A stretch of 64,000 nucleotides of DNA, from assembly GCA_964607415.1 (NCBI GenBank), contig CAZSKK010000001.1, positions 333,469 through 397,468 on the forward strand, written 5' to 3'. Every line of letters starts with the position of its first letter. Position 1 is the first letter of the stretch. This stretch comes from an uncultured Candidatus Saccharibacteria bacterium. GTDB taxonomy: Bacteria > Patescibacteriota > Dojkabacteria > J137. Under the pieces are notes generated by a model, which did no database searches, was not told the DNA's origin, and worked only from the letters and a program-made list of their open reading frames with translations. The position numbers and the translations under genes are program-made. Below are positions 2,737 through 55,464 of the stretch, piece by piece.

Positions 2737-2924
2737 AATTCAGAGAAAGAGGTAAAGAGCTATGAAACAAATTTACCTAATTATTCTAAATACAAATAAA
2801 CTCGAAATTCAAAACCCTAAACAAATTTGAAACCAGAGGATAGAGGCTAGATGCCAGAATTCGAAGCTCACAGCTCGAAACTCGCAAACACGTTAACTCC
2901 TTGTTTTTCGCTATATGCTATAAG

Positions 2925-4478: not shown

Positions 4479-4480
4479 AT

Positions 4481-4563
4481 TAGCTACAAGCCTTCAGCTA
4501 TCTGCTGTCAGCCCAAAATAGTTATTGCCCATCTGCTGATGGCTGATAGCCGACAGCTGTGGT
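4481..4563. repeat. Palindromic intergenic repeat (family R2), copy a, between the def stop and the cca start
   Basis: tagctacaagccttcagctatctgctgtcagcc...atctgctgatggctgatagccgacagctgtgg. It shares an identical 12-mer (ttcagctatctg) and an identical 16-mer (gctgatggctgatagc) with 45418..45476. Confidence 0.5.
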
Positions 4564-5091: not shown

Positions 5092-5352
5092 AACGCGATT
5101 ATATCATAGAATAGTTATAGTGTTTACGTGTTAACGAGTTAGAGAGCTAACTGATTAGATTATTAAAACTCAAAACAAGAATCTCCTAACTTTGATATAA
5201 TTCAGAATGACATCAGGGGTCAGAGACCTGAAGTTAGTGGCAAGATATCATAAGTAAGAATTTAAAGTTAATTCGTTTTGGTATGCGATTTCTGGATTCT
5301 AAATGTTTAGAATTTCCAATTTAGTATTTCGAATTTATCATTAATTTTTTCT

Positions 5353-9997: not shown

Positions 9998-10055
9998 ATG
10001 CGAGTACTACACTCTAAAATAACATTATACACGCTTTAAATTAAGCTAGTTACTT

Positions 10056-11102: not shown

Positions 11103-11123
11103 GCATTAATTTATAACTTTAAA

Positions 11124-12266
11124 TTAAACTGCATTTGCAACTGCTTTAGCTACCCTTTTGTCGAATGGATCTGGAATAATTAGATCTTCTGTAGGGTTTT
11201 CAACTAGTGAAGCAATTGCTTTGGCAGCATTTAACTTTGTATCAGTAGTTACTTTTTTTAGGTTTTTATCCAGTAATCCTCTGAAAATTCCAGGAAAGCC
11301 TAGCACGTTATTTACCTGATTTGGATAATCGGACCTCCCTGTAGCAACAATTCTTGCACCTGCCTGCATAGCATCTTCCGGTAAAATTTCAGGATCCGGA
11401 TTTGCCATTGCAAAGATCACGGAATCTTTATTCATCTTTCTTACCATATCTTTGGTTAAGGCTCCTGCAACACTTAAACCTATAAAGATTTGAGCCTCTT
11501 TTATAGCATCTTCTAAAGTACCCGTAAGATTTTGTTTATTAGTAAAATTTAAAAGTAATTTTTTATATTTATTTAAATCGTTTCTATTCTTAGAAATAAT
11601 TCCAGTAGAATCACAAACTATCATGTTTGAAAATCCATAATCTCTTAGCAAGCTTGCTACAGCAGTTGCAGCAGCACCTGCGCCATTTATTACAACTCTG
11701 GAATTTTTCAAATCCTTACCTAGCACCTTAGCCGAATTAATAATTCCAGCTAAAACTACAATTGCAGTCCCATGCTGATCATCGTGAAAAACAGGAATAT
11801 CAAGAATTTCTTGTAATCTTTCTTCAATTTCAAAACACCTTGGTGCCGATATGTCTTCTAGATTTATTCCAGAAATAGACGGTGCTATATTGGTAATTGT
11901 GTTTATAATTTCTTCAGTATCTTGCGTTGCCAGCACAATAGGAATTGCATCAACACCACCAAATTCTTTTAATAAAAGGCATTTACCTTCCATAACAGGA
12001 AGCGCTGCTTCTGGACCAATATTTCCTAATCCTAGAACTGCTGATCCATCAGAAATTACTGCTACAAGATTTTTTCTCCAGGTTAGTTCTTTAACCCTTG
12101 ACTTATCAGCCTTAATTTCTAAACATGGTCCTGCAACTCCGGGACTATACGCCAATGATAATTCAATTTTATTGGTTACTTTAATTTTAGGTACAATCTG
12201 TAATTTTCCCCCATTATCCTTGTGCATTTTAATTGATTCGCTTTTATAATCCATATTTAGATGCAA
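11124..12266 (-). CDS. NAD(P)-dependent malic enzyme (small type)
   Basis: LAYSPGVAGPCLEI, SDGSAVLGLGNIGPEAALPVMEGKCLLLKEFGGVDA and the dinucleotide-binding motif VINGAGAAATAV. Confidence 0.8.
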   Translation of the reverse strand: MHLNMDYKSESIKMHKDNGGKLQIVPKIKVTNKIELSLAYSPGVAGPCLEIKADKSRVKELTWRKNLVAVISDGSAVLGLGNIGPEAALPVMEGKCLLLKEFGGVDAIPIVLATQDTEEIINTITNIAPSISGINLEDISAPRCFEIEERLQEILDIPVFHDDQHGTAIVVLAGIINSAKVLGKDLKNSRVVINGAGAAATAVASLLRDYGFSNMIVCDSTGIISKNRNDLNKYKKLLLNFTNKQNLTGTLEDAIKEAQIFIGLSVAGALTKDMVRKMNKDSVIFAMANPDPEILPEDAMQAGARIVATGRSDYPNQVNNVLGFPGIFRGLLDKNLKKVTTDTKLNAAKAIASLVENPTEDLIIPDPFDKRVAKAVANAV

Positions 12267-24218: not shown

Positions 24219-25928
24219 ATGATGCAAGCAGAAGAAACACCACCAAAGCTACCTCCTCTTCCAGATAATTACGAACTTACTATAACTGACCCTGAAAAAA
24301 CAGGTATTAGACTTTTTCGACTTGCAGATAAGCAAACCGGTATTGTAACAACCTTTATAGAGTTTAATAAAGATTTTGATATTCATGCAGCAATTGCATG
24401 GGCTGGAGCCCGAACTTCAAGAACTAATGATAGTTATGAAAGTATTTACGCTGAAATTTATGAAGCTTCTAAAGCAGGAAGATACCAAGCTGGTGAAAAA
24501 CTAATGAAAGTTTTCTTGAATTATGGACACGCCTCTGTTGCAGATATGTCACCTATTATGATTGGAATTGAAAATATTCCAATGCTTGAAGCTTTCTTTA
24601 TTTTTGATCATACAAGTGTAAACGCAGGACAAGAGCTTTCCACAAGATATGTAGAAATCTCAGATTTAGGTGTACCTGAAATTCAAGATTTGCTTGATTT
24701 GGAAAGCTTAGAAGGTGAACAAAAAGAGAAAATCCAAAAATTATGGGGAAAAATCCAAGATAATTGCTCAAGGCAATACACCAAGTGGACTTCACTTATT
24801 AAACCACGTATTGAGAAATTTATTGAAGAAGGGGGCAAAAAACCTTCAAAGGATACTGTAAATGCTAGAACTCTTGACATTGCAAGAATGTGGATTCCTG
24901 TAGGAGCAAGTACTTCTATGATCTCACTTTCTTCAACAAGAGATTGGGTAAACATGATAAAACAACTACGCGAAAATGAAAGCCCCATTTCAGATAGTAT
25001 TGCTGACCAAATCCTGGTTACTTTAAACTTAAAAAATTATAGCGAAGGCGAATCATTACAAGCCGATATAGGCAGATTAACAAAATACCACGAAGGGACC
25101 TTTACCGTTAATCAAAATTTAAAGAATCTGCAGGAACTAATTTTAACAATTTCTGAATTTTCAGATTTAGTTGATCAACCTATTTCACACGAACCTAAAT
25201 CGTCACCCAATAAAGCAAAAATATTGAACCTTGGCACAAATTATAGCCCAGGAACTTTACTTGCAGCAGAATATATTTCAGTGCTATTTCCTAATATTGA
25301 TGAGGAAGCAATATTAGAAAAACTGGTAGCTCTTGATAATAACTTAAAAGGTGAGATAGGTAGAATTATACTAGATGGACATAACCACCATGACTTACTA
25401 AAAAATGCTGCAGATGTAAGGGGCACTCTAGTTGTTGTAGAGACTGCTCTTGCATACTTAAGAGATTTAAATAGGCATAGAGCTCTAGGTAGATTAATGC
25501 ACTTACTTGAAACAAAAAATACTGACGCAATTGTCTACCAAGGATTCAACCAAAACTTTGCACTTAATAACTCAGATTATTTAAAAGATCTCTCTCCTAT
25601 GTGGGAAGAGGACATGGCCCAACATTACGAAATGATTTTTGAATTTTATGAGGTTCTCAAAGAAAGTCTTGGGGATAATTTAGATAGTAAAATTCTCAAC
25701 TATATTCTCCCATTAGGTCACCAGGTAAAAGCTCACTTTAGCGGGCCACTTTTGCAATTTGACTACATGTTAAGTTTAAGAATTTCGCTAGGGGGTGATT
25801 TTGGTTATAGGGATACTGCTCATCAAATTTTAGAGTTGTTTAGGCAAGATCCTTTTTTAATAAGTATGTTAGAAAAAATTGAGAAACCTGATCCTAATGA
25901 CTTGACTCAAGTTGTAGGAAGAAGCTAA
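24219..25928 (+). CDS. ThyX-like (flavin-dependent thymidylate synthase fold) protein with a large central insertion; function uncertain
   Basis: The N-terminal part (YGHASVADMSPIMIGIENIPMLEAFFIFDHTSVNAGQELSTRY) and C-terminal part (ILPLGHQVKAHFSGPLLQFDYMLSLRIS) align by eye with ThyX blocks (GHETPFEH...[40 protein letters not shown]). The RHR residues are replaced by DHT. Confidence 0.4.
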   Translation: MMQAEETPPKLPPLPDNYELTITDPEKTGIRLFRLADKQTGIVTTFIEFNKDFDIHAAIAWAGARTSRTNDSYESIYAEIYEASKAGRYQAGEKLMKVFLNYGHASVADMSPIMIGIENIPMLEAFFIFDHTSVNAGQELSTRYVEISDLGVPEIQDLLDLESLEGEQKEKIQKLWGKIQDNCSRQYTKWTSLIKPRIEKFIEEGGKKPSKDTVNARTLDIARMWIPVGASTSMISLSSTRDWVNMIKQLRENESPISDSIADQILVTLNLKNYSEGESLQADIGRLTKYHEGTFTVNQNLKNLQELILTISEFSDLVDQPISHEPKSSPNKAKILNLGTNYSPGTLLAAEYISVLFPNIDEEAILEKLVALDNNLKGEIGRIILDGHNHHDLLKNAADVRGTLVVVETALAYLRDLNRHRALGRLMHLLETKNTDAIVYQGFNQNFALNNSDYLKDLSPMWEEDMAQHYEMIFEFYEVLKESLGDNLDSKILNYILPLGHQVKAHFSGPLLQFDYMLSLRISLGGDFGYRDTAHQILELFRQDPFLISMLEKIEKPDPNDLTQVVGRS

Positions 25929-29020: not shown

Positions 29021-30934
29021 TTATTCTACTACTTCCCCTTCTTCAGGTTCATCTTTATTATCTTCATTCTTACTCTTATCCTCACTCTCACCCTTTGATT
29101 CTTCACCTGCAGCAGCTTCGTACATTTTAGCTCCCACTGCTTGAAGTTTTTCCATTAAGGCATCAACTGCTTTCTTTAAAGCTTCTTGATCAAGTTCAGA
29201 TTTTCCAAGTTCCTCTTTAACAAGTTTAATTTGATCATCTAAAGCTTTTTTATCCTCTTCACTAATCTTATCTTTATTATCTTTAATTAATTTTTCTGCC
29301 TGAAAAACTAATGAATCAGCTTCATTAATAAGTTTCAATCTTTCAACCTCTGCTTTATCTTTAGCTTCGTTTTCTGCTGCTTCTTTAACTAGTTTATCTA
29401 TTTCAGATTCTTCTAAGTGAGTTGACGCAGTAATTGTAATATCTTTTTCTTTGCCAGTTCCTAAATCTTTTGCCTTAACGTTCAAGATTCCATTTGCATC
29501 AATTTTAAATGTAACAGAAAATTTAGGTACACCTCTTGGTGCAGATGGAATTCCGTCTAGTCTAAATACGCCTAGTTCTTTGTTATCTTTAGCTAAAGGT
29601 CTTTCTCCTTGTAAAACTCTAACATCAATTGCATTTTGGTTATCTACAGCAGTTGTAAATCTATCTTCAGACTTTTCTGCAGGGATCGTTGTGTTTCTTG
29701 GGATTAAGATATGCATTTCGCCCATATTAACTTCAAGACCAAGTGATAATGGAGTTACATCTAACAAAGTGATGTCTTCAACACCAGAATCTCCAGCTAA
29801 AACTGCGCCCTGAACTGCAGCTCCAACTGCAACAACTTCATCTGGGTTTACGCTTTGATTTGGTTTTTTACCAAAAAATTCTTCAACTTTTTTTACAACC
29901 AAAGGCATTCTTGTCATTCCTCCAACCATAATTACTTCTTCAATTTCTGTTTTTTCTTTTTTAGCATCTTTTAATGCTTTTTTGATTGGCTCAATAGTTT
30001 TATCTACCAAATCAAGTACAAGTTTTTCATACTCAGATCTTGTTAAATTCATTCTAAAGTGTTTTGGCCCTTTACTATCTGCTGTAATATATGGAAGATT
30101 AACTTCTGTTGATTCGCTTGAAGATAAAGTAATTTTTGCCTTTTCAGCAGCTTCTTTAAGTCTTTGCAGTGCGGCTGGGTCTTCTTTTAAATCAATTCCT
30201 TGTTCTTTTTTAAATTGAGCAATCATATAATCAATCAATACTTGATCAAAGTCATCTCCACCAAGGTGTGTATCTCCATTTGTAGATAAAACTTCGTAAA
30301 CTCCGTCACCTATTTCTAAAATTGAAATATCAAAAGTACCTCCACCCAAGTCGTAAACAGCAATTAACTGATTTTTATCTTTTTTATCCAAACCATATGC
30401 AATTGCTGCAGCAGTAGGTTCGTTAATAATTCTTTTTACATCAAGTCCAGCTACTTTTCCTGCATTTTTTGTTGCCTGTCTTTGAGAATCATCAAAATAT
30501 GCAGGAACTGTAATTACTGCTTCTGTTACAGGTTCACCCAAAAACGCCTCTGCATCTGATTTTAGTTTAGCAAGAACTTTTGCAGAAATAACTTCTGGCG
30601 CAATCCATTTATCACCAAATTGAATTTCAACTCCTCCTTTGTCACTTTTTTTAATGTTGAACGGAAAAAGTTTTATATCTTTTTGAACTTGTTCATCATC
30701 AAATTTTCTACCTATTAACCTTTTTATTGAGTAAAAAGTGTGCTCTGGATTGATAGCCATTTGATTTTTTGCTGTAATCCCTACAACTTCTGATTTATTA
30801 TCTGTATCAATTGCAATGACTGAAGGCGTTGTTCTAGCACCTTCCTTATTGGTAATTACTTCTGGTTTTCCAGCTTGTACAAAAGCAACAACAGAGTTTG
30901 TTGTTCCTAAATCTATTCCTACGATTTTTCCCAT
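29021..30934 (-). CDS. dnaK: Chaperone DnaK (Hsp70)
   Basis: 637 aa with IGIDLGTTNS, DLGGGTFD and VGGMTRMP Hsp70 signatures, and an acidic C-terminal tail. Confidence 0.95.
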   Translation of the reverse strand: MGKIVGIDLGTTNSVVAFVQAGKPEVITNKEGARTTPSVIAIDTDNKSEVVGITAKNQMAINPEHTFYSIKRLIGRKFDDEQVQKDIKLFPFNIKKSDKGGVEIQFGDKWIAPEVISAKVLAKLKSDAEAFLGEPVTEAVITVPAYFDDSQRQATKNAGKVAGLDVKRIINEPTAAAIAYGLDKKDKNQLIAVYDLGGGTFDISILEIGDGVYEVLSTNGDTHLGGDDFDQVLIDYMIAQFKKEQGIDLKEDPAALQRLKEAAEKAKITLSSSESTEVNLPYITADSKGPKHFRMNLTRSEYEKLVLDLVDKTIEPIKKALKDAKKEKTEIEEVIMVGGMTRMPLVVKKVEEFFGKKPNQSVNPDEVVAVGAAVQGAVLAGDSGVEDITLLDVTPLSLGLEVNMGEMHILIPRNTTIPAEKSEDRFTTAVDNQNAIDVRVLQGERPLAKDNKELGVFRLDGIPSAPRGVPKFSVTFKIDANGILNVKAKDLGTGKEKDITITASTHLEESEIDKLVKEAAENEAKDKAEVERLKLINEADSLVFQAEKLIKDNKDKISEEDKKALDDQIKLVKEELGKSELDQEALKKAVDALMEKLQAVGAKMYEAAAGEESKGESEDKSKNEDNKDEPEEGEVVE

Positions 30935-31038
30935 AATAAAAAAAATTAAATTTTAAAAGTATAAAGATTAGAATTATGATTCAAGATTCATGATTCAGGA
31001 AAAGTGAATAATATTCTTGAATCCTGAATCTTAATTCT

Positions 31039-31053
31039 CTGCCTGAAAGGCAG
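31039..31053. terminator. Hairpin downstream of orf183, upstream of the dnaK CIRCE
   Basis: ctgcc-tgaaa-ggcag. Confidence 0.35.
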
Positions 31054-31055
31054 AA

Positions 31056-31082
31056 TTAGCACTTAAAGTATAAGATTGCTAA
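31056..31082. promoter_or_regulatory. CIRCE-like HrcA operator upstream of dnaK
   Basis: TTAGCACTT-aaagtataa-GATTGCTAA. Its TTAGCA-N15-TGCTAA spacing is identical to the CIRCE consensus TTAGCACTC-N9-GAGTGCTAA. Confidence 0.6.
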
Positions 31083-31091
31083 TTTGTTTTG

Positions 31092-31643
31092 TCAAGATTC
31101 ATTCGTTATCATCTTTAAAACCTCAGCAAACCTTTCTTCCTTAAACATAAATAGTGGTCCTTCATAAATTTTTATCTGTCTGAACTTCACATCTTCTTCC
31201 CTTGTGTACCATTGCATAAAAAGTGTTGATGATTCACTAACACCCAATCTATTAAATAAACCGTATAATTTATAGATAGCATAAAAATCATTGCCTACTA
31301 TATTAAGATCACTGGCGTTTGGTCTCCTTTCATCGGTTCTATACTCAGCACTTGCCACTCTTGTGTAAAGACCAGTTATTCTAACCAGATCGGGATGATT
31401 TATTGCTGGGTTCGTATCTATTGTTAAGGCAACTATGTAATCCTCAATTTCCAAAGAAACAACGCCTTTGATATTTGTAAAGCTATGTAATCTAAAGATT
31501 TCACTAATATCTGGTAGCTTTACATTAATATCTTCCAAATCAAAAGCTAATACAGTCACATCTATTGTTTCGCCTGGTTTATAAATATTGGGTATAGATC
31601 TTTTTAAGGTTACTACCTTTCCTATATTTTCACCTTCTATCAT
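31092..31643 (-). CDS. Hypothetical protein embedded in the heat-shock operon between grpE and dnaK
   Basis: 183 aa. Its start overlaps the grpE stop by 4 nt (ATGA). No recognisable motif. Confidence 0.45.
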   Translation of the reverse strand: MIEGENIGKVVTLKRSIPNIYKPGETIDVTVLAFDLEDINVKLPDISEIFRLHSFTNIKGVVSLEIEDYIVALTIDTNPAINHPDLVRITGLYTRVASAEYRTDERRPNASDLNIVGNDFYAIYKLYGLFNRLGVSESSTLFMQWYTREEDVKFRQIKIYEGPLFMFKEERFAEVLKMITNES

Positions 31644-32146
31644 TTTCCAACAATAACTTTTGCTGGTTTCAGAACATTTACTTGTCCTATATATTTATAA
31701 GCTGAACTAATAACAACAATAACCTTATTCTTATTGCGTTCATCCGCAACAGTTTGTATTGCTTCCATCTTTGATCTATCAAATTCATCCCCTACATTTA
31801 CTTCAACTTTTTCAACACCTGCACTTTTTACAGCTGCAATTAATTTATCTTGAGCAGTTTTTAAAGAACTTTTAGCATGTTCTAAATTTAAACCACCATC
31901 TTTCAGTGCAAGCTCCATATCATCGTGAATTTCCAACATCTCAGAAATTAAACCCATATTTGCAATTGCTCCAAAAGTCGCTCTTTCAGCATCCATTCTT
32001 TTTCTGTAGTTATCAAAATCAGCCATAAGCTGGAGCTTTTGACTTTTTAATGCTTCAACTTGCATTTCAAGTTCTTTAAGTTTGCTAATTTCATCATTTT
32101 GAACCTTTACTTCATTTTCTTTTTTATTATGTTTTGCTTTTGTCAT
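31640..32146 (-). CDS. grpE: Nucleotide exchange factor GrpE
   Basis: Coiled-coil N-terminus with ADFDNYRKRMDAE, and a C-terminal beta domain (VLKPAKVIVG). Confidence 0.8.
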   Translation of the reverse strand: MTKAKHNKKENEVKVQNDEISKLKELEMQVEALKSQKLQLMADFDNYRKRMDAERATFGAIANMGLISEMLEIHDDMELALKDGGLNLEHAKSSLKTAQDKLIAAVKSAGVEKVEVNVGDEFDRSKMEAIQTVADERNKNKVIVVISSAYKYIGQVNVLKPAKVIVGK

Positions 32147-32351
32147 ATTATATTAAATTAAAGAATGTAAAAATCTGGTAATTCAATTGAAATTAAGTAG
32201 TAATTCGTTGTAGAACAGAATAACGAAACAAAAATTACGGATTTCAAATTATGTGTTGTTTAACTTGTAATTCTCGATTTGCTTCCTCGTAATTAATGCG
32301 CATACACGACTTACGCTCTCTTATGGCTTTTTACCTCTAAACCTGTTTTCA

Positions 32352-33089
32352 CTACTTCCATCCTCGAATTAAATATCCAATTGTATTTGAAAAGTATTTA
32401 ACTGAAGCTATTACCATTTGATAATTCATTCTATTTGGTCCAACAACTGCTAGGTATCCATTTTTATTATCAGGTAATTTTATTTCTGAAAAAACAACAG
32501 CGTAATCATCAAAAAGGTCAATATCAGCTTCTTCACCAACCAAAACTCTAATTTCAGCATCGCCTCCCTTCTCAAACATTTTTGCAAGTGTCGAGTAATC
32601 TTCTAAAATTCTAAGAATATTTCTAAGCTTTTCCAACTCTCTAAATTCTGGAAGCATAACCATATTTGATAGACCTGCATAATATACATCCTTATCAATA
32701 AGTGCAACTGCGACATTTCCAGTTAAACTATTTAAATAATTTAAACTATTTCGAATTAAATTTTCAGTTTCAAATTTAACTTTGTTTAATTCAATTTTAA
32801 CTTTTTCCCTAGTTACGACATCTATAATATCTTCTGTTTCATCATCAATTTCGTCCAAGTAAAATCTCCAGCCCTTTGTAGTTGGAATCCTTCCTCCGCT
32901 CGAATGTTTCATAAATAAGTATCCCTTTAAAACCAAATCGGACATTTCATTTCTGATTGTTGCAGGACTTACTTTAAATTGATACTTAGTTTGAAGCGCA
33001 AGGGATCCAACAGGTTCCCCTGATGTTATAAAGTCATCAATTATTGCTTTTAAAAGTTGCTGTTGTCTATCGGATAAATCCATATACAC
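32352..33089 (-). CDS. hrcA: Heat-inducible transcription repressor HrcA (short form, 245 aa)
   Basis: LSDRQQQLLKAIIDDFITSGEPVGSLALQTKY...VSPATIRNEMSDLVLKGYLFMKHSSGGRIPTTKGWRFYLD matches the HrcA N-terminal wHTH. Confidence 0.75.
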   Translation of the reverse strand: MYMDLSDRQQQLLKAIIDDFITSGEPVGSLALQTKYQFKVSPATIRNEMSDLVLKGYLFMKHSSGGRIPTTKGWRFYLDEIDDETEDIIDVVTREKVKIELNKVKFETENLIRNSLNYLNSLTGNVAVALIDKDVYYAGLSNMVMLPEFRELEKLRNILRILEDYSTLAKMFEKGGDAEIRVLVGEEADIDLFDDYAVVFSEIKLPDNKNGYLAVVGPNRMNYQMVIASVKYFSNTIGYLIRGWK

Positions 33090-40992: not shown

Positions 40993-41496
40993 ATGAGTAT
41001 TTTTCATTTCCAACCGGACAAACCGGTTGACAGTAATGCCGCTGATGGAATCTGCTGTGTTGCTTTACACTTACATTACCAAGACTTCCCTTTAGATGAA
41101 GTTACAGGACAGATTAGGTTGTTACTAAGTAATACTACTGGACTACTTGAAGATCCTAGCTCCGGGACCAAAGCAAAAATAATGAAATTTCTTCTTGAAG
41201 AAGAAATTCCTGAAACGTTTGCAGAAGAGCTAAAAGATCCCGCCTTTTATAATAAAGTTGTACTTCGTTTGAGAGCATCCCGAACGTCTATAGATACATT
41301 CGTTAACGAATGTCTGAAAGGTATAAATACAGATCTAGAGCGATGGAAGAATTTAGACAATACTCTTGGTAAAAAAGAACATTTCCAAAATTTATCGAGA
41401 ATGCTTACAAGAGTGCAAAAAAGAATGATAGAATTTTTAGACAATAATTGTCACATTAAAACACAAAATATTAATAATTTAACTTTTGAGCAGTAA
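40993..41496 (+). CDS. Hypothetical protein
   Basis: 167-aa ORF with no motif. Confidence 0.35.
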   Translation: MSIFHFQPDKPVDSNAADGICCVALHLHYQDFPLDEVTGQIRLLLSNTTGLLEDPSSGTKAKIMKFLLEEEIPETFAEELKDPAFYNKVVLRLRASRTSIDTFVNECLKGINTDLERWKNLDNTLGKKEHFQNLSRMLTRVQKRMIEFLDNNCHIKTQNINNLTFEQ

Positions 41497-41501
41497 AATT
41501 T

Positions 41502-41996
41502 ATGGATAGAGCTTTACAACAAATAGAAACTCCTGTTATAGAACTAACACCGATTGCTTCAAAGATTCAAAGCTTATGTGAAATTCCTAATAATCAATTA
41601 GCTGTAGATGATATAAATACCTTTTTATTTGGTGGTAGACACGACGAAAGTAATTATGCCACGACAAAATTTTTGCAAAATAATAACGAGGGTATTCTTG
41701 AATATCTGGAAAAGTTATCCCACCAAATAATAGACCGTACAGCCAGAGCGATACTCCAACTTGATATAGATTTTTTTCATATGCAATATTCTGGAAAACT
41801 AGAAATACATGGTGAGACTGGCCAAATAGTCGATAGGTTAACTGAGGAGGACTTAAAAAATTTAGAACACGATCCAGGTTGTCTAAAACTATATAAAGGA
41901 ATTAAATCCAACCAAGAACTTCTATTTAAATTAAACTTAGGCAAAACGCGCATAAAAAAATTGAAGCAGACAAGCTGGATAGACGGTATACTGTGA
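41502..41996 (+). CDS. Hypothetical protein
   Basis: 164-aa ORF, 5 nt after the previous ORF. Confidence 0.35.
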   Translation: MDRALQQIETPVIELTPIASKIQSLCEIPNNQLAVDDINTFLFGGRHDESNYATTKFLQNNNEGILEYLEKLSHQIIDRTARAILQLDIDFFHMQYSGKLEIHGETGQIVDRLTEEDLKNLEHDPGCLKLYKGIKSNQELLFKLNLGKTRIKKLKQTSWIDGIL

Positions 41997-42403: not shown

Positions 42404-44116
42404 ATGAAATACTCAACTTTATTCGGAAAAACCGTTCGAGAAGCAACCAAAGATATGGCTATGACTTCTCACAAATTACTTTACCAGGCAGGATTTATTA
42501 GAGAATCTACTGCAGGTAGATACTTCTTTCTACCACTAGGTTGGAAAGTTCATGACAAGATTAAGCAAATCATCAAAGAGGAAATGGACAAAGCTGGAGG
42601 ACAGGAAATGATTTCGCCAGTTTTACATCCATTGGAACTTTGGAAAGAAACCAATAGAACTAATACAGTAGGATTTGAATTAATGGTAATTAAGGATCAT
42701 AGAGGTGCAGAATTTGCACTTGGAGGAACAGCAGAAGAAATGTTTGTAGATGTAGTTCGGAAATTTCAACTGAGCTATAAAGACTTGCCATTTAATATTT
42801 ATCAATTCTCAACAAAATTTAGAGATGAAAAACGAGCTCGTGGTGGTCTTTTAAGGGTTAGAGAATTTGTAATGAAAGATGCCTATTCATTTGATAAAGA
42901 TGAAGAAAGCTTTAAAAAAACTTACACATTAATGGCTGAAACTTACAAAAAAATATTTGAACGCGTAGGCTTAAATGCATTTATGGTGCCTGCTGATAAT
43001 GGTTACATTGGTGGTGAATACTGTGATGAATTTCAAGTTGAGCACGAGAAAGGTGAGGGTAAATTTTTTGTATCTGAAGATGGAACTTATATTGCGCATG
43101 AAGACATTGCTACATTTAAACATGAAGAAAAAAATCTTTCAGAAGGGCTTAAAGAATATCAGGAGATTGACGCAGTTAGAGGAAACTCAATGGAAGATGG
43201 GGTGAAACTTCATGGATTACCACTTTGGCAACAAATGAAAGATGTAATGTTTGCAGATGAAAAAGGAAATCTTATTTTATGCATAATTCGTGGAGATTTA
43301 GATGTTAACGAAACAAAAGCACTACACGCATCTGGAGCAGCTCAGTTAAGGCCTGCAACAGAAGAAGAAATTAGAGCCATTGGATCTGAACCAGGATTTA
43401 TTTCTCCCGTTGGGTTAAAGGGTAAAGTTAAAATCATTGGTGATACTTCGCTTAGAACTGTAAAAAATATGTATGGTGGTGCAAATAAAAAACATAAAGA
43501 TGTACTTAACATGAATATTGATCGTGATTATCAACTGGATATTGAAGCGGATATTGCAATGGCACAAGATGGATTTTTGTCTCCAGATGGTAAAAGTGTT
43601 TTGAAAGAAAAACGCGGAATTGAAGTTGGAAATATATTTCAGCTTGGTTACCACTATACAAATCTTATGCAAAACGCTTTGTATACAGATGAAGATGGTA
43701 CTCAGAAGAAATTTTATATGGGATGTTACGGTATTGGACTTGGAAGAACTTTGGCAACAATTGTAGAAAAACATCATGATGAAAAAGGTATTATTTGGCC
43801 TAAGTCAGTTACTCCATTTCATGTACATTTGGTAACAATTGCAAAGTCTATAGATGATGAAAGTTATAACAAATCAAATGAACTTTATAATAAACTGATG
43901 GCTAGTGGAATTGATGTACTTTGGGATGATAGGTTGGATGTATCTGCAGGTGGTAAGTTTAATGATTCAGATTTAATAGGAATTCCTTTAAGACTTATAA
44001 TTAGTCCTAAAACTTTAGAGCAAAATGGTGTTGAAGTTAAAGAAAGATCTAAATCTGACTTTGAAATAATGGCAGAAGACAAACTGGTTGAATTTATAAA
44101 GAGTTATTATAAGTAG
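42404..44116 (+). CDS. proS: Prolyl-tRNA synthetase (bacterial type with an INS editing domain)
   Basis: 570 aa. Class II motifs FRDEKRARGGLLRVREFVMKDAYSF, an INS-like insert (GFISPVGLKG) and a C-terminal anticodon-binding domain. Confidence 0.9.
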   Translation: MKYSTLFGKTVREATKDMAMTSHKLLYQAGFIRESTAGRYFFLPLGWKVHDKIKQIIKEEMDKAGGQEMISPVLHPLELWKETNRTNTVGFELMVIKDHRGAEFALGGTAEEMFVDVVRKFQLSYKDLPFNIYQFSTKFRDEKRARGGLLRVREFVMKDAYSFDKDEESFKKTYTLMAETYKKIFERVGLNAFMVPADNGYIGGEYCDEFQVEHEKGEGKFFVSEDGTYIAHEDIATFKHEEKNLSEGLKEYQEIDAVRGNSMEDGVKLHGLPLWQQMKDVMFADEKGNLILCIIRGDLDVNETKALHASGAAQLRPATEEEIRAIGSEPGFISPVGLKGKVKIIGDTSLRTVKNMYGGANKKHKDVLNMNIDRDYQLDIEADIAMAQDGFLSPDGKSVLKEKRGIEVGNIFQLGYHYTNLMQNALYTDEDGTQKKFYMGCYGIGLGRTLATIVEKHHDEKGIIWPKSVTPFHVHLVTIAKSIDDESYNKSNELYNKLMASGIDVLWDDRLDVSAGGKFNDSDLIGIPLRLIISPKTLEQNGVEVKERSKSDFEIMAEDKLVEFIKSYYK

Positions 44117-44117
44117 A

Positions 44118-44615
44118 TTGGACACAACTTTTGGACCTGGATTTACCAACTTTGAAAAAAACCCTGTTCATAAGCTTACTAAGTACTTTCAACACTGGCC
44201 AACAAGTATAGAGTCTAGTGAAGTTGCAATTGAATCTACTGAAGAAGATTCAAATTTCCGAGAATTACTTACTCAACAGATGCGTATTGGATTTTTAGCA
44301 TACCTTGAAGTAATGACCAGGGAAAGAGAAGTTTCAAACTACTATTTAGAAATTTATATTCCGAGAGAAGCACTCAAAATTGTACGAGCTTATAAAGACG
44401 AATGCGTTGTTTGTGCATTATTCAATGCATCGGAACCTGATTTCTTTGATTTTGCCCTTTCAAAATTTTCTTATGATAAGCACGATATGACCCACGGGGC
44501 TCTTGTTGACTTCGCCTATGATATTTATGAAATAAAATATCATAGCCAGTTAGGCGAAAGCGTTATCGATTGGCTAACCAGCACCTTACAAGGAGAAGAC
44601 GATGATGATAGCTAA
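44118..44615 (+). CDS. Hypothetical acidic protein ending in a poly-Asp tail
   Basis: 165 aa, starting 2 nt after the proS stop. The C-terminus reads ...LQGEDDDDS. Confidence 0.35.
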   Translation: MDTTFGPGFTNFEKNPVHKLTKYFQHWPTSIESSEVAIESTEEDSNFRELLTQQMRIGFLAYLEVMTREREVSNYYLEIYIPREALKIVRAYKDECVVCALFNASEPDFFDFALSKFSYDKHDMTHGALVDFAYDIYEIKYHSQLGESVIDWLTSTLQGEDDDDS

Positions 44616-48731: not shown

Positions 48732-49565
48732 TTACGATTCACGGTTATAAGTGTTATTTAGACTGTCTATAAGTTTTTTATATGCCGTTTTTTCAGCTTT
48801 ATTATTAAAGTTTACGCTTTGAGTAGGCTCAAAATACATTATGCCGCTAGGTAATCTTGTTCCGATAATATCAAACTTAAATCCATCCTCATTGTAGGAT
48901 TGCTGGTACCCATTAGCTTGCTTATTTAGAATTTTTTGATTCTCTGCAACGCGAAACGCATTATTGGCATCCTTAAGTTTACTTGCTATTTCCGAATCCT
49001 CAACAATCATCAAGCTTTCTAGCGCTAAAGGTAAATTTGAAATAACACCATTTGTGTCAGTTATTCTAGGAAGAATTCCTTGAGTAGTTTTACTTGCGCC
49101 ATAAACTAAAGCTGTTTCTGTTATATCACTACCCTTTCTTTTAAAAACAACAACAATATCTTTTTCTAAAGAAGTAAATTGTTCATGTACAGTTCCTACT
49201 TCAAGGCTCGTCAAAATACCTCCTTTGTTGTACTGTCCTTCTAGAGCTTCTCTAGAATTTTTAGGCACTAGTGATCTTATAGCTAAAGCTATTTGCCTTG
49301 GTGTATGTGTGCTAAGCTCGTAAACAGCTTTTGGGTAAACAACTCTCCCTCTTGACAGCTCCACACCAGCAACTTCCGCATGTGTTTCATAGTTCCTATC
49401 TATTGATTTACTGCCATTACCTCTTTTATTCACAAAATCAACCTCTTTGCCATTATTAGCTTGGCTCCAGTATAAGTTTTGCGGGTTTAATGGAGATTCG
49501 TGCTCTTGAATATAACCATATACATCATCACCTTTTTTCATAGTATCTAATTGTAACGAATCCAT
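48732..49565 (-). CDS. Hypothetical soluble protein
   Basis: 277-aa ORF with no motif. Confidence 0.35.
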   Translation of the reverse strand: MDSLQLDTMKKGDDVYGYIQEHESPLNPQNLYWSQANNGKEVDFVNKRGNGSKSIDRNYETHAEVAGVELSRGRVVYPKAVYELSTHTPRQIALAIRSLVPKNSREALEGQYNKGGILTSLEVGTVHEQFTSLEKDIVVVFKRKGSDITETALVYGASKTTQGILPRITDTNGVISNLPLALESLMIVEDSEIASKLKDANNAFRVAENQKILNKQANGYQQSYNEDGFKFDIIGTRLPSGIMYFEPTQSVNFNNKAEKTAYKKLIDSLNNTYNRES

Positions 49566-51665: not shown

Positions 51666-52958
51666 TTATGGTCTTGTTAAAACTGTCGTTCTTGGGAACG
51701 CAATAGTCTCTCTAATATGGTGAACTCCACTTACCCACCTAACCATTCTTTCTAGTCCTAAACCAAAGCCACTGTGAACCACAGACCCATACTTTCTAAT
51801 GTTTAAGTACCACTCATAATCTGATACTGGATAGTTTCTCGCTTTCAGTTCCGCAAGCAGTTTGTCATAATCTTCTTCTCTTTGGCTCCCACCAATAATT
51901 TCTCGAGCTTCTTCTGGAGCAATTAAGTCCGCATTTCTTGCTCTAACCATTCCTTTATCATCTGTATATTTTTTCATGTAAAATGCTTTAACAGCAAATG
52001 GATAATCTTCAATAAATACTGGAACTCCAAAGTGATTTCCTATTTCGATTTCCTCCTCTGTGGTCATGTCGTCGTTATAATCAACCTTAAATCCTTTTTC
52101 TTCCATTAGCTTTTTAGCATCATAATGCTTCATTCTAACAAAAGGAGTGTTTACTGTTTTTTCCAGTACAGTTGTATCTCTTTCCAAAATTTCTAATTCA
52201 ACTTTACAGTTTTCAATACAATCTTTAAGAATCCTTTTTACCATTGCTTCTTGAACATCTTCATTCATTGATTGATCATGAAATGCCATTTCAGCATCCA
52301 TCATCCAAAATTCCGATAAATGATTTCTGGTCTTACTTTTTTCTGCTCTAAAAACGGGGCCAAAATCGTAAACTTTTCCAAAACTCATAATCGCAGCCTC
52401 ACTATAAAGCTGACCTGATTGAGTTAAATACATTTGATCTTCATAGTACTTTAGTGAAAATAGTTGAGTTGTATCCTCACAACTTGTTGGTTGCAAAATT
52501 GGAGTATCAAATCTAATAAAACCTTGCTCGTGATAAAAGTTTGTAATAGATCTAAAAACCTGATCTCTGATTCTTAAAACAGCCCAAGGAGTTTTTGATC
52601 TTAAATACAAATCCCTGTTTTCAAATAAAAATTCTGGCCCATGTTCTTTTTTACCAATTGGGAAATCTTCTGATTTTCCAATAAGTTTAACTTCTGAAAC
52701 TTGAATTTCATATTCTTCTTTTTTAGGATGTTTAGAGATTGTGCCATTAATTTCAACTGATGATTCTAAACCTAGTTCTTCAGCATACTTCCAAGTCTCT
52801 TCTGAAACTTTATCTTTTTCTACAACCGCTTGAATAAATCCTGACCCATCACGTAACTGCAAGAATGCTATTTTCCCAGAGGATCTTTTATTGTACATCC
52901 AGCCTTTAAAGATGATTGATCTATCTACGAACTCTTTTGCTTTTGAAATTGTGAACAT
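51666..52958 (-). CDS. asnS: Asparaginyl-tRNA synthetase
   Basis: 430 aa, class IIb. Motif 2 is FRAEKSKTRNHLSEFWMMDAEMAF (EFWM is AsnRS-like). Motif 3 is GGSQREEDYDKL...YGSVVHSGFGLGLERMV...AFPRT (GSVxHSGFG and the FPRT end are AsnRS-like). Confidence 0.75.
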   Translation of the reverse strand: MFTISKAKEFVDRSIIFKGWMYNKRSSGKIAFLQLRDGSGFIQAVVEKDKVSEETWKYAEELGLESSVEINGTISKHPKKEEYEIQVSEVKLIGKSEDFPIGKKEHGPEFLFENRDLYLRSKTPWAVLRIRDQVFRSITNFYHEQGFIRFDTPILQPTSCEDTTQLFSLKYYEDQMYLTQSGQLYSEAAIMSFGKVYDFGPVFRAEKSKTRNHLSEFWMMDAEMAFHDQSMNEDVQEAMVKRILKDCIENCKVELEILERDTTVLEKTVNTPFVRMKHYDAKKLMEEKGFKVDYNDDMTTEEEIEIGNHFGVPVFIEDYPFAVKAFYMKKYTDDKGMVRARNADLIAPEEAREIIGGSQREEDYDKLLAELKARNYPVSDYEWYLNIRKYGSVVHSGFGLGLERMVRWVSGVHHIRETIAFPRTTVLTRP

Positions 52959-53298: not shown

Positions 53299-53370
53299 CT
53301 GGTCAGCTAGGATTCGAACCTAGAGTCTTCCCGTTAACAGCGGGATGCAATACCATTATGCTACTGACCA
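53299..53370 (-). tRNA. tRNA-Asn (anticodon GUU)
   Basis: Reverse complement: TGGTCAG-TA-GCAT-AATGGTAT-TGC-AT-CCCG-CUGUUAA-CGGGA-AGACT-CTAGG-TTCGAAT-CCTAG-CTGACCA-G. The acceptor is a perfect 7 bp. The anticodon loop is C-U-GUU-A-A. The T-loop is GGTTCGAATCC, the discriminator is G, and CCA is not encoded. Confidence 0.85.
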
Positions 53371-53470: not shown

Positions 53471-53500
53471 AAAAACTCCTTTTTCCCAGGAGTTTTATTA
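53471..53500. terminator. Intrinsic terminator hairpin with T-tracts on both strands, downstream of aspS
   Basis: aaaactcct-ttttccc-aggagtttt. On the minus strand it is followed by tttgttttt. Confidence 0.5.
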
Positions 53501-53667: not shown

Positions 53668-55464
53668 TCACACTGAAAAATCACCTAGAATTGGATTAAC
53701 CGCATCAACTAAATCTTTAGCCTTCATTTCAATTGAGCAGGTTCTTTTGCCACAGTTAAAGTCAACTGTTTCGTTATTTAAAATCTTTTCATCAAAATAC
53801 GTTTTTAAGCCTAAAAGATTCCCTAGTGGAGGAACTCCACCAACTTGAATTCCAAATTTTTCTAAAATCACTTCTGGTTTTTCAAATTCAATTGCTTCTC
53901 CCAAAATTTCTTTTGCTTTAGTCATATCTAGTTTTAAGTGAGCTGGCATTACAAACATAAAGTTCTCGCTAGATTTCTTGCCTTTAACAATTAGAGCCTT
54001 AGCTCCTTCTTCAATTTTGGTTCCTCTAACTCTACTTGCATCTTCACTTGTTACAACTTCTTCATGTTCATCGTATTCATATTTAAAACCAAATTTATCT
54101 AAATGTTTTTTTATTTGCTCTGTAACATCAATATTTTTGTTGAATTTTCTTTTGATTGGAACACCAGCAATTCGCTTTGTGTCTGATGGGAACAAAACTG
54201 TCTCTCTGATATTTTCTAAACCTAGAAGCTGTAGAGTAAATCTTTCAAGGCCAATCCCAAACCCTCCATGTTTTGGCATACCGTATTTGAATATTGATAG
54301 ATAATCCGTAAAATCTTCCGGATTTAAACCCTTCATTTTTAAACTTTCTACCAAATCATCGTATTTATCAATTCTTTGGCCTCCACTTGAAACTTCAGTT
54401 CCATTACAAATTAAATCCCCGTAGTTACAAACCAGTGGATTTTCTTCATTTGGTTTTGCATAAAATGCACATTTTGTTCTTGGGAAGTGAGTAACAAAAA
54501 TAAAATCAATTCCAAATTTTTCTTTAGCATATTTACATATAAATCTTTCCGCATCAGGCGAAAGATCATTTTCATTTCTTTCATCTTTGCCTGTTGCTTC
54601 AAAATATAGTTCTAGTGCTTCTTTTAATGTAACTTTTGGAATTGTAATCTCATCTTTAAGAGTTGCAAAATTAGGAAAGAGTTTAATTTCTTCAGCACAT
54701 TTTTCCAGAACTTTTTTATACATTGCTTTAATTACTTTTTCCTCCCACTCCAAAACTTCATCAAATTTTTCAATAAATCCAACTTCAAATTCAAACTGAG
54801 TTGCTTCTGTAATATGTCTTCTGGTATTTGATTTTTCAGCTCTAAAGCACTTCAAAGTTCCAAAAACTCTTTCAAAAACACCAACCATCATTTGTTTATA
54901 TAGTTGGTTTGATTGAGCTAATTTTGCTTCAACACCAAAGTAATCGACAGTAAAAAGTTCTGCCCCACCCTCACTTGAAGCTCCAATAATGGCAGGTCCC
55001 ATAAACTCTGTAAATCCTTGAGATATAAGATATTCTCTATATCCTTCTAAAATTGCAGCTTGAATCTTAAAAACTGCACTGATTTTTTCATTCCTTAAAG
55101 TTAGCGGTCTATAATCTAAAATTGTATCAATGTGAGCATTAATTTCTGGTTTATTAACTTCAACAGGCCAAGGTTCCGTTATAGCATTTTCAATTGTAAT
55201 TTCAGGATTAGTGATTTCAAAACCAAGCTCTGCTTGTGAATTTTCTTTTACAATTCCAAAAATTTTTATAATTGATCCAGGCTGAAGTGTACTTAAATTT
55301 TTTATATCATCCGCATTTTCAACAAAAACCTGAACCAAACCGCCTCTATCTCTTAAAATTAAAAAAGCAATTTTTCCAAGTTTCCTAAAGTTATGTAACC
55401 AACCTTTTATATAGACTTTTTCGCCCACTTTTTCTTGGCACTCAGTAGATATTATTCGTTCCAC
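53668..55464 (-). CDS. aspS: Archaeal/eukaryal-type aspartyl-tRNA synthetase fused to a C-terminal YbaK/ProX-like aminoacyl-tRNA deacylase domain
   Basis: 598 aa. N-terminal OB fold. Motif 2 is FRAEKSNTRRHITEATQFEFEVGF. Motif 3 is SSGGQRIDKYDDLVESLKMKGLNPEDFTDYLSIFKYGMPKHGGFGIGLER...LFPSD (compare archaeal AspRS GMPPHGGFGLG...FPRD). An extra ~150-aa C-terminal domain has ALIVKGKKS..FMFVMPAHLKLDMTKAKEILG, FGIQVGGVPPLGN and FNCGKRTCSIEMKAKDL, matching the YbaK blocks (YKTLLV.., GYLVGGISPLG, VSGGKRGLDIEL). Confidence 0.75.
   Translation of the reverse strand: MERIISTECQEKVGEKVYIKGWLHNFRKLGKIAFLILRDRGGLVQVFVENADDIKNLSTLQPGSIIKIFGIVKENSQAELGFEITNPEITIENAITEPWPVEVNKPEINAHIDTILDYRPLTLRNEKISAVFKIQAAILEGYREYLISQGFTEFMGPAIIGASSEGGAELFTVDYFGVEAKLAQSNQLYKQMMVGVFERVFGTLKCFRAEKSNTRRHITEATQFEFEVGFIEKFDEVLEWEEKVIKAMYKKVLEKCAEEIKLFPNFATLKDEITIPKVTLKEALELYFEATGKDERNENDLSPDAERFICKYAKEKFGIDFIFVTHFPRTKCAFYAKPNEENPLVCNYGDLICNGTEVSSGGQRIDKYDDLVESLKMKGLNPEDFTDYLSIFKYGMPKHGGFGIGLERFTLQLLGLENIRETVLFPSDTKRIAGVPIKRKFNKNIDVTEQIKKHLDKFGFKYEYDEHEEVVTSEDASRVRGTKIEEGAKALIVKGKKSSENFMFVMPAHLKLDMTKAKEILGEAIEFEKPEVILEKFGIQVGGVPPLGNLLGLKTYFDEKILNNETVDFNCGKRTCSIEMKAKDLVDAVNPILGDFSV

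Follow-up and report, generated by a model that had tools for sequence, protein, structure and literature searches.

RESULTS

An aspartyl-tRNA synthetase gene with an appended editing domain

Within the window, i.e., the whole 64-kb stretch of DNA that was analyzed, the genes aspS-edit, tRNA-Asn, and asnS follow one another on the minus strand. The first of these (53668..55464, minus strand; GTG start codon, stop codon at 53668-53670) is an uninterrupted open reading frame of 598 amino acids in which an aspartyl-tRNA synthetase (AspRS) is fused to a C-terminal editing-type domain, and it is supported by its domain matches and by 120 homologs of the same architecture. Downstream lie a terminator-like hairpin followed by a T-run (53472..53496, minus strand), a tRNA-Asn(GTT) gene with a U1:A72 pair and G73 (53299..53370, minus strand), and, again on the same strand, the gene for a 430-aa asparaginyl-tRNA synthetase (AsnRS; 51666..52958, minus strand) that scores 490 bits against NF003037 (cutoff, 414). 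Because AsnRS is encoded, the genome has a direct route to Asn-tRNA(Asn). The hairpin and T-run, found by consensus scan only, suggest that the fusion transcript is separate from tRNA-Asn and asnS; promoter-like sites in such a scan did not exceed the shuffled background.

The fusion is neither a frameshift nor an assembly chimera, both of which are ruled out by the continuity of the reading frame, by the identical 598-aa sequence on 8 contigs, and by the three-domain architecture common to all 120 of the best homologs (50 to 68% identity). Its N terminus also agrees with the homolog consensus, in which M1 and R3 are near invariant. An earlier note on this DNA had read the locus as a single protein combining AspRS with an extra C-terminal editing-type domain, adjoined by an AsnRS gene, and both readings hold; the tRNA-Asn gene between the two synthetase genes is absent from that note. 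Databases automatically annotate the fusion proteins merely as "aspartate--tRNA(Asn) ligase."

Residues 1 to 432 constitute an archaeal-type class IIb AspRS, again as previously proposed. Residues 2 to 432 score above the cutoffs of both NCBIfam NF003483, "aspartate--tRNA(Asn) ligase" (487.1 bits; cutoff, 353), and TIGR00458 (389.7 bits; cutoff, 368.4), and the nearest PDB match is Thermus thermophilus AspRS2 (1N9W; E value of 1e-104). An N-terminal OB-fold anticodon-binding domain (residues 17 to 91; 55192..55416, minus strand; PF01336, E value of 2.2e-14) precedes a class IIb catalytic core with motifs 2 and 3 (residues 113 to 428; 54181..55128, minus strand; PF00152, E value of 6.7e-76). 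The FRAE...RH and GGFGIGLER motifs line up with 1N9W and 1B8A, and the GAD insertion (PF02938) is absent from the protein in a Pfam search. In alignments with the same two structures, His24 corresponds to Trp26 and Glu79 to Lys85 of T. kodakarensis AspRS; the 120 homologs have N or H at position 24 and E, G, or D at position 79. Feng et al. in 2003 reportedly tied the Trp26/Lys85 pair to the discriminating character of the T. kodakarensis enzyme. Given the best match to 1N9W, the NF003483 equivalog assignment, and the absence of the Trp/Lys pair, the core would be of the nondiscriminating type and is predicted to charge tRNA(Asn).

The main fused clade departs from the canonical AspRS motifs QSPQ and D-x-E. 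The fusion has QSNQLYKQ and Q-F-E-F-E in their place, the clade overall has QS[S/N/A]Q and E-F-E, and other fused lineages retain QSPQ and D-A-E; we therefore rejected the idea that these changes track possession of the editing domain, as they mark the main clade only. Both motifs are among the best conserved of those that contact the substrate, and their alteration could relax amino acid selection, as would be expected if AspRS loads tRNA(Asp) with a noncognate residue (Ser, Thr, or some other amino acid that is small or near cognate) and the domain then removes it by hydrolysis. The canonical motifs of the other fused lineages tell against this explanation, and we know of no amino acid that AspRS misactivates enough to need editing.

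An INS/YbaK-type fold with invariant putative pocket residues

A predicted flexible linker (residues 429 to 446; 54127..54180, minus strand) joins the core to the editing domain. Residues 432 to 441 have a pLDDT of <50 in the full-length AF2 model and are predicted to be disordered, and the pTM of that model is 0.68 although both domains are confident, such that the editing domain appears to be flexibly tethered by roughly 15 residues. The domain itself (residues 447 to 598; 53671..54126, minus strand) adopts the INS/YbaK fold. PF04073 (tRNA_edit) matches residues 467 to 587 over profile positions 1 to 122 of 123 (E value of 2.5e-22; 79.7 bits; cutoff, 25.5), the AF2 model of the domain has a pLDDT of 92.7, and Foldseek aligns this model to ProX/APE2540 (2cx5 and 1wdv; TM scores of 0.83 and 0.84) and to YbaK (1dbu; 0.78 to 0.79), each with a probability of 1.00.

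Lys489 (codon at 53998..54000, minus strand), which sits in a GAKAL motif and aligns with the YbaK lysine, is the counterpart of the essential lysine of YbaK and INS, and G542-G-V-P-P546 (GGVPP; 53827..53841, minus strand) is the GXXXP loop of the INS superfamily. K489, G542, P545, and P546 are invariant both in the 120 fusions and in 84 family members of every architecture. Family-specific residues comprise His467, Thr472, Ser473, Arg480, Asn570, and Ser577; four of these, the putative pocket residues H467, R480, N570, and S577, are likewise invariant across fused and free-standing forms, and Thr472-Ser473 is near invariant. From FNCGKRTCSIE, only F569, N570, G572, and S577 are conserved, and the cysteines vary among the 120 homologs.

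The earlier note had called the domain YbaK/ProX-type on the strength of the lysine-bearing strand, the glycine loop, and CGKRTCSIE. The fold, the lysine, and the loop are indeed present, but the cysteines of the third motif are not conserved, and YeaK/ProXp-ST1 is a nearer relative than YbaK. Identity with YbaK proper was rejected, the domain scoring 57.7 bits against TIGR00011 (YbaK_EbsC; cutoff, 153.25) and 37 bits against NF007951 (cutoff, 243).

Invariance of the whole set of putative pocket residues (K489, GxxxP, H467, R480, N570, and S577) is what one would expect if the domain is an enzyme and argues against a nonhydrolytic role, in which the domain would bind the acceptor end for tRNA affinity or keep Asp-tRNA(Asn) for a transamidosome-like hand-over to GatCAB. 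Such a role has parallels in the C-terminal domain of plant ProXp-ala, an appended domain that raises tRNA binding (PMC11295145), and in nondiscriminating AspRS, which holds Asp-tRNA(Asn) until GatCAB arrives (PMC3367201). It would also suit one locus (L046) at which a fusion lies beside a canonical bacterial AspRS, a layout that recalls an AspRS2 dedicated to making Asp-tRNA(Asn) and, hence, counts against clearance of that product. Because many genomes encode free-standing family members without an AspRS neighbor, and in view of the pocket, we consider a nonhydrolytic role quite improbable.

Relationship to characterized INS-superfamily enzymes

A profile of the fused domain scores highest against YeaK/ProXp-ST1 (85.6 bits), followed by 3op6 (78 bits; E value of 5.6e-21), the ProXp-x structure 2cx5 (47 bits), YbaK (43 bits), and ProXp-ala (5vxb and 1vjf; 23.6 to 23.9 bits), and membership in the ProXp-ala and ProXp-x families was rejected on these low scores. 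In sequence comparisons, the domain thus appears to form a distinct clade, apart from YbaK, ProXp-ala, and ProXp-x, whose nearest characterized relative is Escherichia coli YeaK/ProXp-ST1. The INS clusters ProXp-7, -8, and -9 of Kuzmishin Nagy et al. (2020) have been described only as uncharacterized.

This kinship bears on the choice of substrate. Proofreading of the amino acid would mirror the editing domains of ThrRS, AlaRS, and ProRS as well as ProXp-ST1 itself, the closest characterized relative, and ProXp-ST1 and -2 remove Ser and Thr from several tRNAs, including the tRNA(Lys) of the class IIb enzyme LysRS (PMC11295145). That YeaK/ProXp-ST1 hydrolyzes Ser- and Thr-tRNAs (PMC11295145) also counts against Asp-tRNA(Asn) as the substrate. 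However, the ProXp-ST enzymes are free-standing and have broad tRNA specificity, which leaves a tether to AspRS only without explanation.

Repeated association with AspRS

The fusion is no rarity. A scan of GTDB with a 7-sequence alignment as the query yielded 355 confirmed fusion matches, from Dojkabacteria, other Patescibacteria, Chlamydiota, Bdellovibrionota, and DPANN archaea. The domain clade occurs on archaeal-type AspRS at about 45 loci, on GAD-less bacterial-type AspRS (L020, L053, L054, L057, L058, L061, and L070), and on full bacterial-type AspRS with the GAD insertion (PF02938; L064, P0147, and P0163), and it is also found as a free-standing protein adjoining aspS (L049, L042, L027, L005, L073, and L074). 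Fused and free forms interleave in a neighbor-joining tree, which points to several fusion or fission events. The presence of one clade on three AspRS architectures, and free beside aspS, argues for a proofreading module dedicated to AspRS.

The same distribution bears on the view that the domain is a general trans-editing factor, correcting errors of ProRS or other synthetases and coexpressed with AspRS through the fusion while being functionally unrelated to it. YbaK and ProXp-ST do process, in trans, what other synthetases produce (PMC11295145), but an exhaustive search gave 6112 matches, and among the best 150 of these, AspRS is the sole synthetase partner, fused or adjacent in three architectures and in many phyla. 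Furthermore, the ProRS in the window (42404..44116, plus strand; Pfam) already bears an INS domain of its own, from which the AspRS-attached copy is separate, as the earlier note had maintained. We regard a general trans-editing role as very improbable.

Two side observations concern other fusions. In some Dojkabacteria, AsnRS has an N-terminal INS-type domain of a different kind (P0279 and P0383), hinting at a general problem of amino acid fidelity among class IIb enzymes in that group, which would favor amino acid proofreading. Separately, in one family member (P0230), the domain is joined to a D-Ala-D-Ala carboxypeptidase domain; only one cluster has this architecture, which might be an artifact of gene calling.

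The latter, so qualified, would fit a chiral function, in which the domain strips D-Asp from tRNA(Asp), replacing or supplementing D-aminoacyl-tRNA deacylase (DTD). D-Asp-tRNA(Asp) is among the classical DTD substrates, so AspRS accepts D-Asp, and a Pfam search of about 40 of the window's open reading frames revealed no Dtd gene. Since chiral discrimination is not known for any INS-fold enzyme, we hold this to be the least probable of the alternatives.

Linkage to tRNA-Asn and asnS

The gene order of the window has counterparts elsewhere. Two DPANN loci (L073 and L074) have the order aspS-edit-asnS with a free-standing domain; locus L042 has asnS, aspS, tRNA-Asn, and edit; and at L020, both tRNA-Asn and asnS are nearby. 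tRNA-Asn recurs near the domain at L020, L021, and L042, and tRNA-Asp was never seen near it at the loci examined, with the linkage to tRNA-Asn and asnS resting on only about 4 independent lineages. AsnRS matches and fused-AspRS matches also share contigs, as paired by identical sizes (584792, 862240, 48056, 43531, 13623, 26123, and 24842). Clustering of the locus flanks produced no amidotransferase among the recurrent neighbors, and those that do recur (PNPase, TadA, FtsH, RF1, GluRS, TilS, and RecJ) reflect lineage synteny only. The linkage of aspS, edit, tRNA-Asn, and asnS in several lineages, along with AsnRS on the same contigs, makes clearance of Asp-tRNA(Asn) plausible and lends it circumstantial support, and it is unaccounted for by amino acid proofreading.

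No gatCAB was found in the 64-kb window (Pfam on about 40 open reading frames and a motif scan), in the 79 locus flanks (motif scan), or in the 10 kb beyond the window start, which together cover a small fraction of each genome. Were GatCAB present, Asp-tRNA(Asn) would merely be amidated.

DISCUSSION

AspRS and the other class IIb synthetases are textbook cases of enzymes that manage without editing, and the INS/YbaK superfamily has so far been described as centered on ProRS. AspRS with an INS-type module occurs in hundreds of bacteria and archaea with small genomes, a pairing that has apparently never been described or tested: full-text literature searches found no description of such a fusion, and an earlier mention elsewhere is possible. 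We think it probable that the editing domain actively proofreads and is a module dedicated to AspRS. The repeated recruitment of an INS-type module to three kinds of AspRS, in CPR bacteria, DPANN archaea, Chlamydiota, and predatory bacteria, implies that the decoding of Asp and Asn faces a fidelity problem that has gone unrecognized.

In the mechanism that we propose, a working archaeal-type AspRS would esterify a tRNA, the tethered domain would capture the 3′ CCA end of the wrong product, during or just after its release, and the ester bond would be hydrolyzed in a pocket made up of Lys489, the G542xxxP546 loop, His467, Thr472, Ser473, Arg480, Asn570, and Ser577. Which product is wrong is a matter of ranking: our leading guess is Asp-tRNA(Asn), whose clearance the earlier note had already suggested as a speculative role, followed closely by tRNA(Asp) bearing a noncognate amino acid. 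We put forward Asp-tRNA(Asn) as the preferred substrate only tentatively, at less than even confidence, and consider amino acid proofreading somewhat unlikely.

For Asp-tRNA(Asn), the nondiscriminating-type core would charge tRNA(Asn) with Asp, the main difference between this tRNA and tRNA(Asp) being anticodon base 36, and the domain might then recognize tRNA(Asn) by its U1:A72 acceptor pair, as opposed to the G1:C72 of tRNA(Asp). This would be the same handle as that of GatCAB, which separates Asp-tRNA(Asn) from Asp-tRNA(Asp) by U1-A72 versus G1-C72 (PMC9976931), and an acceptor-stem signal of the kind read by INS-family enzymes. The tRNA-Asn(GTT) encoded at 53299..53370 is a possible substrate. 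Because AsnRS makes Asn-tRNA(Asn) directly, Asp-tRNA(Asn) would be unwanted, and the unamidated form is toxic (PMC3367201).

Several considerations weigh against this substrate. AspRS can gain discrimination against tRNA(Asn) through one or two point mutations, which makes an additional domain look overengineered. Among the family-specific residues of 84 members, which include Thr472 and Ser473, no basic residue able to hold the β-carboxylate is evident. Cultured Chlamydiaceae have no AsnRS and rely on GatCAB; if this also holds for the chlamydial MAGs that bear the fusion, hydrolysis of Asp-tRNA(Asn) would be futile.

Should Asp-tRNA(Asn) be the substrate, the domain would embody a new proofreading logic based on tRNA identity, which would explain how direct and nondiscriminating-type routes coexist without GatCAB. 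A dedicated Asp-tRNA(Asn) hydrolase could, though we put this somewhat below our confidence in the substrate itself, be the first editing module to correct a synthetase's mistaken choice of tRNA and not of amino acid. It would be a third evolutionary answer to the tRNA(Asn) problem, beside discriminating AspRS and transamidation by GatCAB, and would allow reduced-genome CPR, DPANN, and chlamydial lineages to keep a nondiscriminating-type AspRS together with AsnRS after loss of GatCAB. If the substrate is instead a misactivated amino acid, a previously unrecognized error of AspRS would be revealed.

Comparison with known systems

Among single-domain INS proteins, YeaK/ProXp-ST1 has the same fold and aligns with the editing domain over its full length (26% identity; hhalign probability of 99.2), sharing the HE, RGT, G-KAL, PPF, FN-G, and S motifs, the catalytic-type lysine included. 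It is nevertheless parted from the AspRS-associated clade by a long branch in the neighbor-joining tree, has Lys-Cys in place of Thr472-Ser473 and Ser in place of Gly548, and acts as a single domain on a broad range of tRNAs, whereas members of the AspRS clade are joined to AspRS or encoded by a gene next to aspS. The uncharacterized Legionella INS protein lpg1207 (PDB accession number 3OP6), which ranks second in sequence score against the fused-domain profile, is free-standing, has Ala at the position of Arg480, and reaches a TM score of only 0.75 to the domain model. YbaK, a Cys-tRNA(Pro) deacylase, shares the fold, the aligned lysine, and a GGxxPxG loop.

The INS domain of ProRS and the ProXp-ala fused to protist ProRS are likewise INS modules joined in cis to a class II synthetase whose products they proofread, with the lysine and GXXXP; there, the module lies between motifs 2 and 3 or at the N terminus, whereas here the partner is the class IIb enzyme AspRS and the module is C-terminal on a disordered linker. 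According to a 2024 review, members of the superfamily besides INS are single-domain proteins, ProRS-fused ProXp-ala being a further case (PMC11295145).

T. thermophilus AspRS2 (1N9W and 3KFU), a nondiscriminating enzyme of archaeal type that belongs to the Asn-transamidosome, resembles the fusion in its OB fold, class IIb core, lack of a GAD domain, and His at the T. kodakarensis Trp26 position; it has no editing domain and passes Asp-tRNA(Asn) to GatCAB, whereas the fusion carries a deacylase-type domain and has an AsnRS gene as its neighbor. The bifunctional AspRS-GatC fusion (NCBIfam NF009460) and the GlnRS-YqeY of Deinococcus radiodurans (PMC1865053) are also Asx/Glx synthetases with an appended module for a mischarged intermediate. 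Both steer the tRNA to amidation; the hydrolase-type domain described here would, if its substrate is Asp-tRNA(Asn), have the opposite outcome.

Fusion of an archaeal-type AspRS to an editing domain

The window has a low GC content (~33%), and the best named matches of its proteins are to Candidatus Dojkabacteria (WS6, Patescibacteria/CPR). The fusion gene, 53668..55464(-), is one uninterrupted reading frame of 598 aa that encodes an OB fold (Pfam PF01336, residues 17-91), a class II D/K/N core (PF00152, residues 113-428, E 6.7e-76), and a complete tRNA_edit domain (PF04073, residues 467-587, E 2.5e-22; here, the edit domain). Residues 2-432 match the archaeal-type "aspartate--tRNA(Asn) ligase" equivalog of NCBIfam at 487 bits (cutoff, 353), and the nearest solved core is Thermus thermophilus AspRS2 (1N9W, E 1e-104), with Thermococcus kodakarensis AspRS behind it. 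Because the identical protein is present on 8 contigs and each of the 120 best homologs (50-68% identity, 595-621 aa) shares this three-domain layout, the fusion is real and no artifact of gene reading, which upholds the joining of AspRS to an editing domain that an earlier note had read from the sequence and disposes of the possibility of two genes merged by a frameshift. A "terminator-like" hairpin at 53823-53843(-) was rejected as a chance match on the GGVPP codons; its position inside coding sequence exposes the limits of the consensus scan that supplied the terminator calls.

Two motifs in substrate-contacting strands are altered in the main clade of fused AspRSs, with QS[S/N/A]QLYKQ replacing the near-universal QSPQ and Q-x-E-F-E replacing S-x-D-x-E (window 54780-54914 and 54900-54925; residues about 184-191 and 223-227); other fused lineages retain the canonical residues at both.

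Residues 436-598 were modeled confidently by AlphaFold2 (pLDDT of 92.7, pTM of 0.86), and the model superposes on ProX/TTHA1699, APE2540, and YbaK with TM scores of 0.78-0.84, matching the fold that had been proposed. In the alignment, Lys489 coincides with the Lys essential to YbaK, and G542-G-V-P-P546 coincides with the GXXXP loop; both are invariant in 120/120 fusions, and across 84 family members of all architectures the invariant or near-invariant positions are H467, T472, S473, R480, K489, G542, P545, P546, F569, N570, G572, and S577. Of the motif CGKRTCSIE, previously taken for a further aligned block, the cysteines vary among the 120 fusions. The full-length model is confident for each of the two parts but leaves residues 432-441 disordered and reaches a pTM of only 0.68; the predicted deacylase domain is a module on a flexible tether rather than rigidly integrated. 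The most likely general reading, which we consider highly probable, is a proofreading module, predicted to be active, that works after transfer and is dedicated to AspRS; the domain would in effect be a trans-editing factor tethered to its own client. Minor alternatives are that it holds tRNA non-hydrolytically or is a trans-editing factor unrelated to AspRS.

Distribution and architectures

A profile was searched exhaustively against 1.84 billion representatives and gave 6112 matches (111 below 1e-30); at the top, AspRS fusions are intermixed with numerous free-standing proteins 150-166 aa long. A scan of GTDB yielded 355 confirmed matches, from which 79 loci (L numbers) were retained; by the organism labels of their MAG records, these belong to Dojkabacteria and other Patescibacteria, Parachlamydiales/Chlamydiota, Bdellovibrionota, several proteobacterial and verrucomicrobial MAGs, and DPANN archaea.

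Among these loci and the search representatives (P numbers), the edit domain is joined to an archaeal-type AspRS at about 45 loci plus the window, to a bacterial-type AspRS lacking the GAD insertion domain in L020, L053, L054, L057, L058, L061, and L070 (several also Dojkabacteria), and to a full bacterial-type AspRS with GAD in L064, P0147, and P0163. It is a free-standing gene adjoining aspS in L049, L042, L027, L005, and the DPANN loci L073 and L074, and a free-standing gene with no synthetase neighbor at about 20 loci. No synthetase partner other than AspRS occurs among the best 150 of the 6112 representatives. Guilt by association offers strong evidence that the clade acts on AspRS products. 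Fused and free forms are interleaved in an NJ tree without support values, a topology that implies putative repeated fusion or fission.

Several arrangements are unusual. Nanoarchaeia-type MAGs (L073:6560-9810 and L074) have a compact cluster of a GAD-less bacterial-type aspS (471 aa), a free-standing edit gene (154 aa), and asnS (450 aa). In L006, the fusion gene occurs twice on one contig (2367-4169 and 7446-9248, ~5 kb apart, identical scores), as the result of a recent duplication or of a repeat in the assembly. P0140 (491 aa) and P0133 (448 aa) each consist of three tRNA_edit domains of the family in tandem, and P0230 (486 aa), a single cluster that could be a gene-call artifact, has a family member fused N-terminally to a Peptidase_S11 (D-Ala-D-Ala carboxypeptidase) domain. 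A GluRS gene lies <8 kb from the edit domain in the Dojkabacteria-like and related loci L002, L053, L054, L057, L061, L068, L070, and L078, and tRNA-Gln genes are often nearby (6 loci); this recurrence is probably lineage synteny.

Linkage to asparagine decoding and the putative substrate

The minus-strand order in the window is aspS-edit, a terminator-like hairpin (consensus scan), tRNA-Asn(GTT), and asnS. L020, L021, and L042 likewise have a tRNA-Asn no more than 8 kb from the edit domain, and tRNA-Asp was not found within that distance at any locus surveyed. asnS is close by in L020, L042, L073, and L074, and in at least 7 further cases, AsnRS homologs are on contigs whose lengths match those of fused-AspRS contigs exactly, so that these genomes are predicted to possess a direct route to Asn-tRNA(Asn). 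The OB domain has His24 and Glu79 (N or H and E, G, or D, respectively, in the 120 homologs) and no Trp26/Lys85 pair as in the discriminating T. kodakarensis AspRS, a pair whose significance in that enzyme was reportedly established by Feng et al. in 2003. The tRNA-Asn of the window has U1:A72 and G73; GatCAB separates Asp-tRNA(Asn) from Asp-tRNA(Asp) by U1-A72 versus G1-C72 (PMC9976931), and Asp-tRNA(Asn) is toxic if unamidated (PMC3367201).

Given the linkage to asnS and tRNA-Asn, the direct Asn route, the U1:A72 pair, this toxicity, and the missing Trp26/Lys85 pair, we tentatively favor Asp-tRNA(Asn), as the earlier note had proposed, as the putative substrate. However, discrimination against tRNA(Asn) is evolvable by point mutation, the nearest characterized relative works on Ser/Thr-tRNAs (PMC11295145), and one fusion, in L046, adjoins a canonical AspRS. 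That locus, from a Pseudomonadota MAG, has an archaeal-type fusion (1672-3507) followed directly by a canonical bacterial-type AspRS (3890-5686; NF001750, 765 bits) and, thus, two AspRS genes side by side.

The main rival, somewhat less probable, is amino-acid editing of X-tRNA(Asp), to which the kinship of the edit domain to ProXp-ST1, the changed QS[S/N/A]Q and E-F-E motifs of the main fused clade, and, unexpectedly, a different N-terminal INS domain on some Dojkabacteria AsnRSs all point; D-Asp-tRNA(Asp) deacylation is a minor rival. The AsnRSs in question, P0279 (L085:3890-5737) and P0383 (L086:6637-8523), lie on Dojkabacteria-like contigs, are 71-79% identical to the AsnRS of the window, and carry an N-terminal PF04073 domain of another branch (YbaK/APE2540/ProXp-x-like, "VKTLI...GSIPPFS") that scores only 38-47 bits against the AspRS edit-domain profile. 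They give this phylum a second, independent case of an editing domain joined to a class IIb synthetase.

Other features of the window

At 44118-44615(+), an ORF of 165 aa that starts with TTG begins 2 nt past the ProRS stop codon and lacks a Pfam match, and many other ORFs of the window, those at 1345-2736, 10056-11102, 40993-41996, and 48732-49565 among them, match no family. A 569-aa protein (24219-25928, +) has a ThyX (Thy1) domain only in residues 60-250 and is longer than flavin-dependent thymidylate synthases usually are. At 7625-12266(-), a phosphoketolase (XFP, 790 aa) occurs together with malic enzyme, giving an otherwise reduced genome of CPR type a capacity for central carbon metabolism, and a dnaK-grpE-hrcA cluster occupies 29021-33089.

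Relation to known editing systems

A profile built from 39 diverse fused edit domains scores highest against Escherichia coli YeaK (ProXp-ST1; 85.6 bits) and Legionella lpg1207 (3OP6; 78 bits), followed by APE2540 (48 bits), ProXp-x (47 bits), YbaK (43 bits), and ProXp-ala (24 bits). The edit domain reaches 57.7 bits against the YbaK equivalog, whose cutoff is 153, and so its earlier description as YbaK/ProX-type stands for the fold and the PF04073 match but not for membership in YbaK. By hhalign, it aligns with YeaK over its full length (probability of 99.2, 26% identity), and the two share HE, RGT, G-K-AL, PPF, FN-G, and S motifs; however, YeaK has Lys-Cys at the near-invariant Thr472-Ser473 of the edit clade and is set apart by a long branch in the NJ tree (without support values). 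Based on the YbaK score and on these differences from its best-scoring relative, we treat the edit domain as a putative distinct clade nearest ProXp-ST1.

No description of an AspRS-INS fusion was found in the full-text literature searched, in which key papers were partially covered. Databases hold hundreds of such proteins with precomputed Pfam domains, so the fusion is common, but it is named only "aspartate--tRNA(Asn) ligase." The fold and chemistry are already known; new are AspRS as a hitherto uncharacterized client synthetase and, possibly, the proofreading logic.
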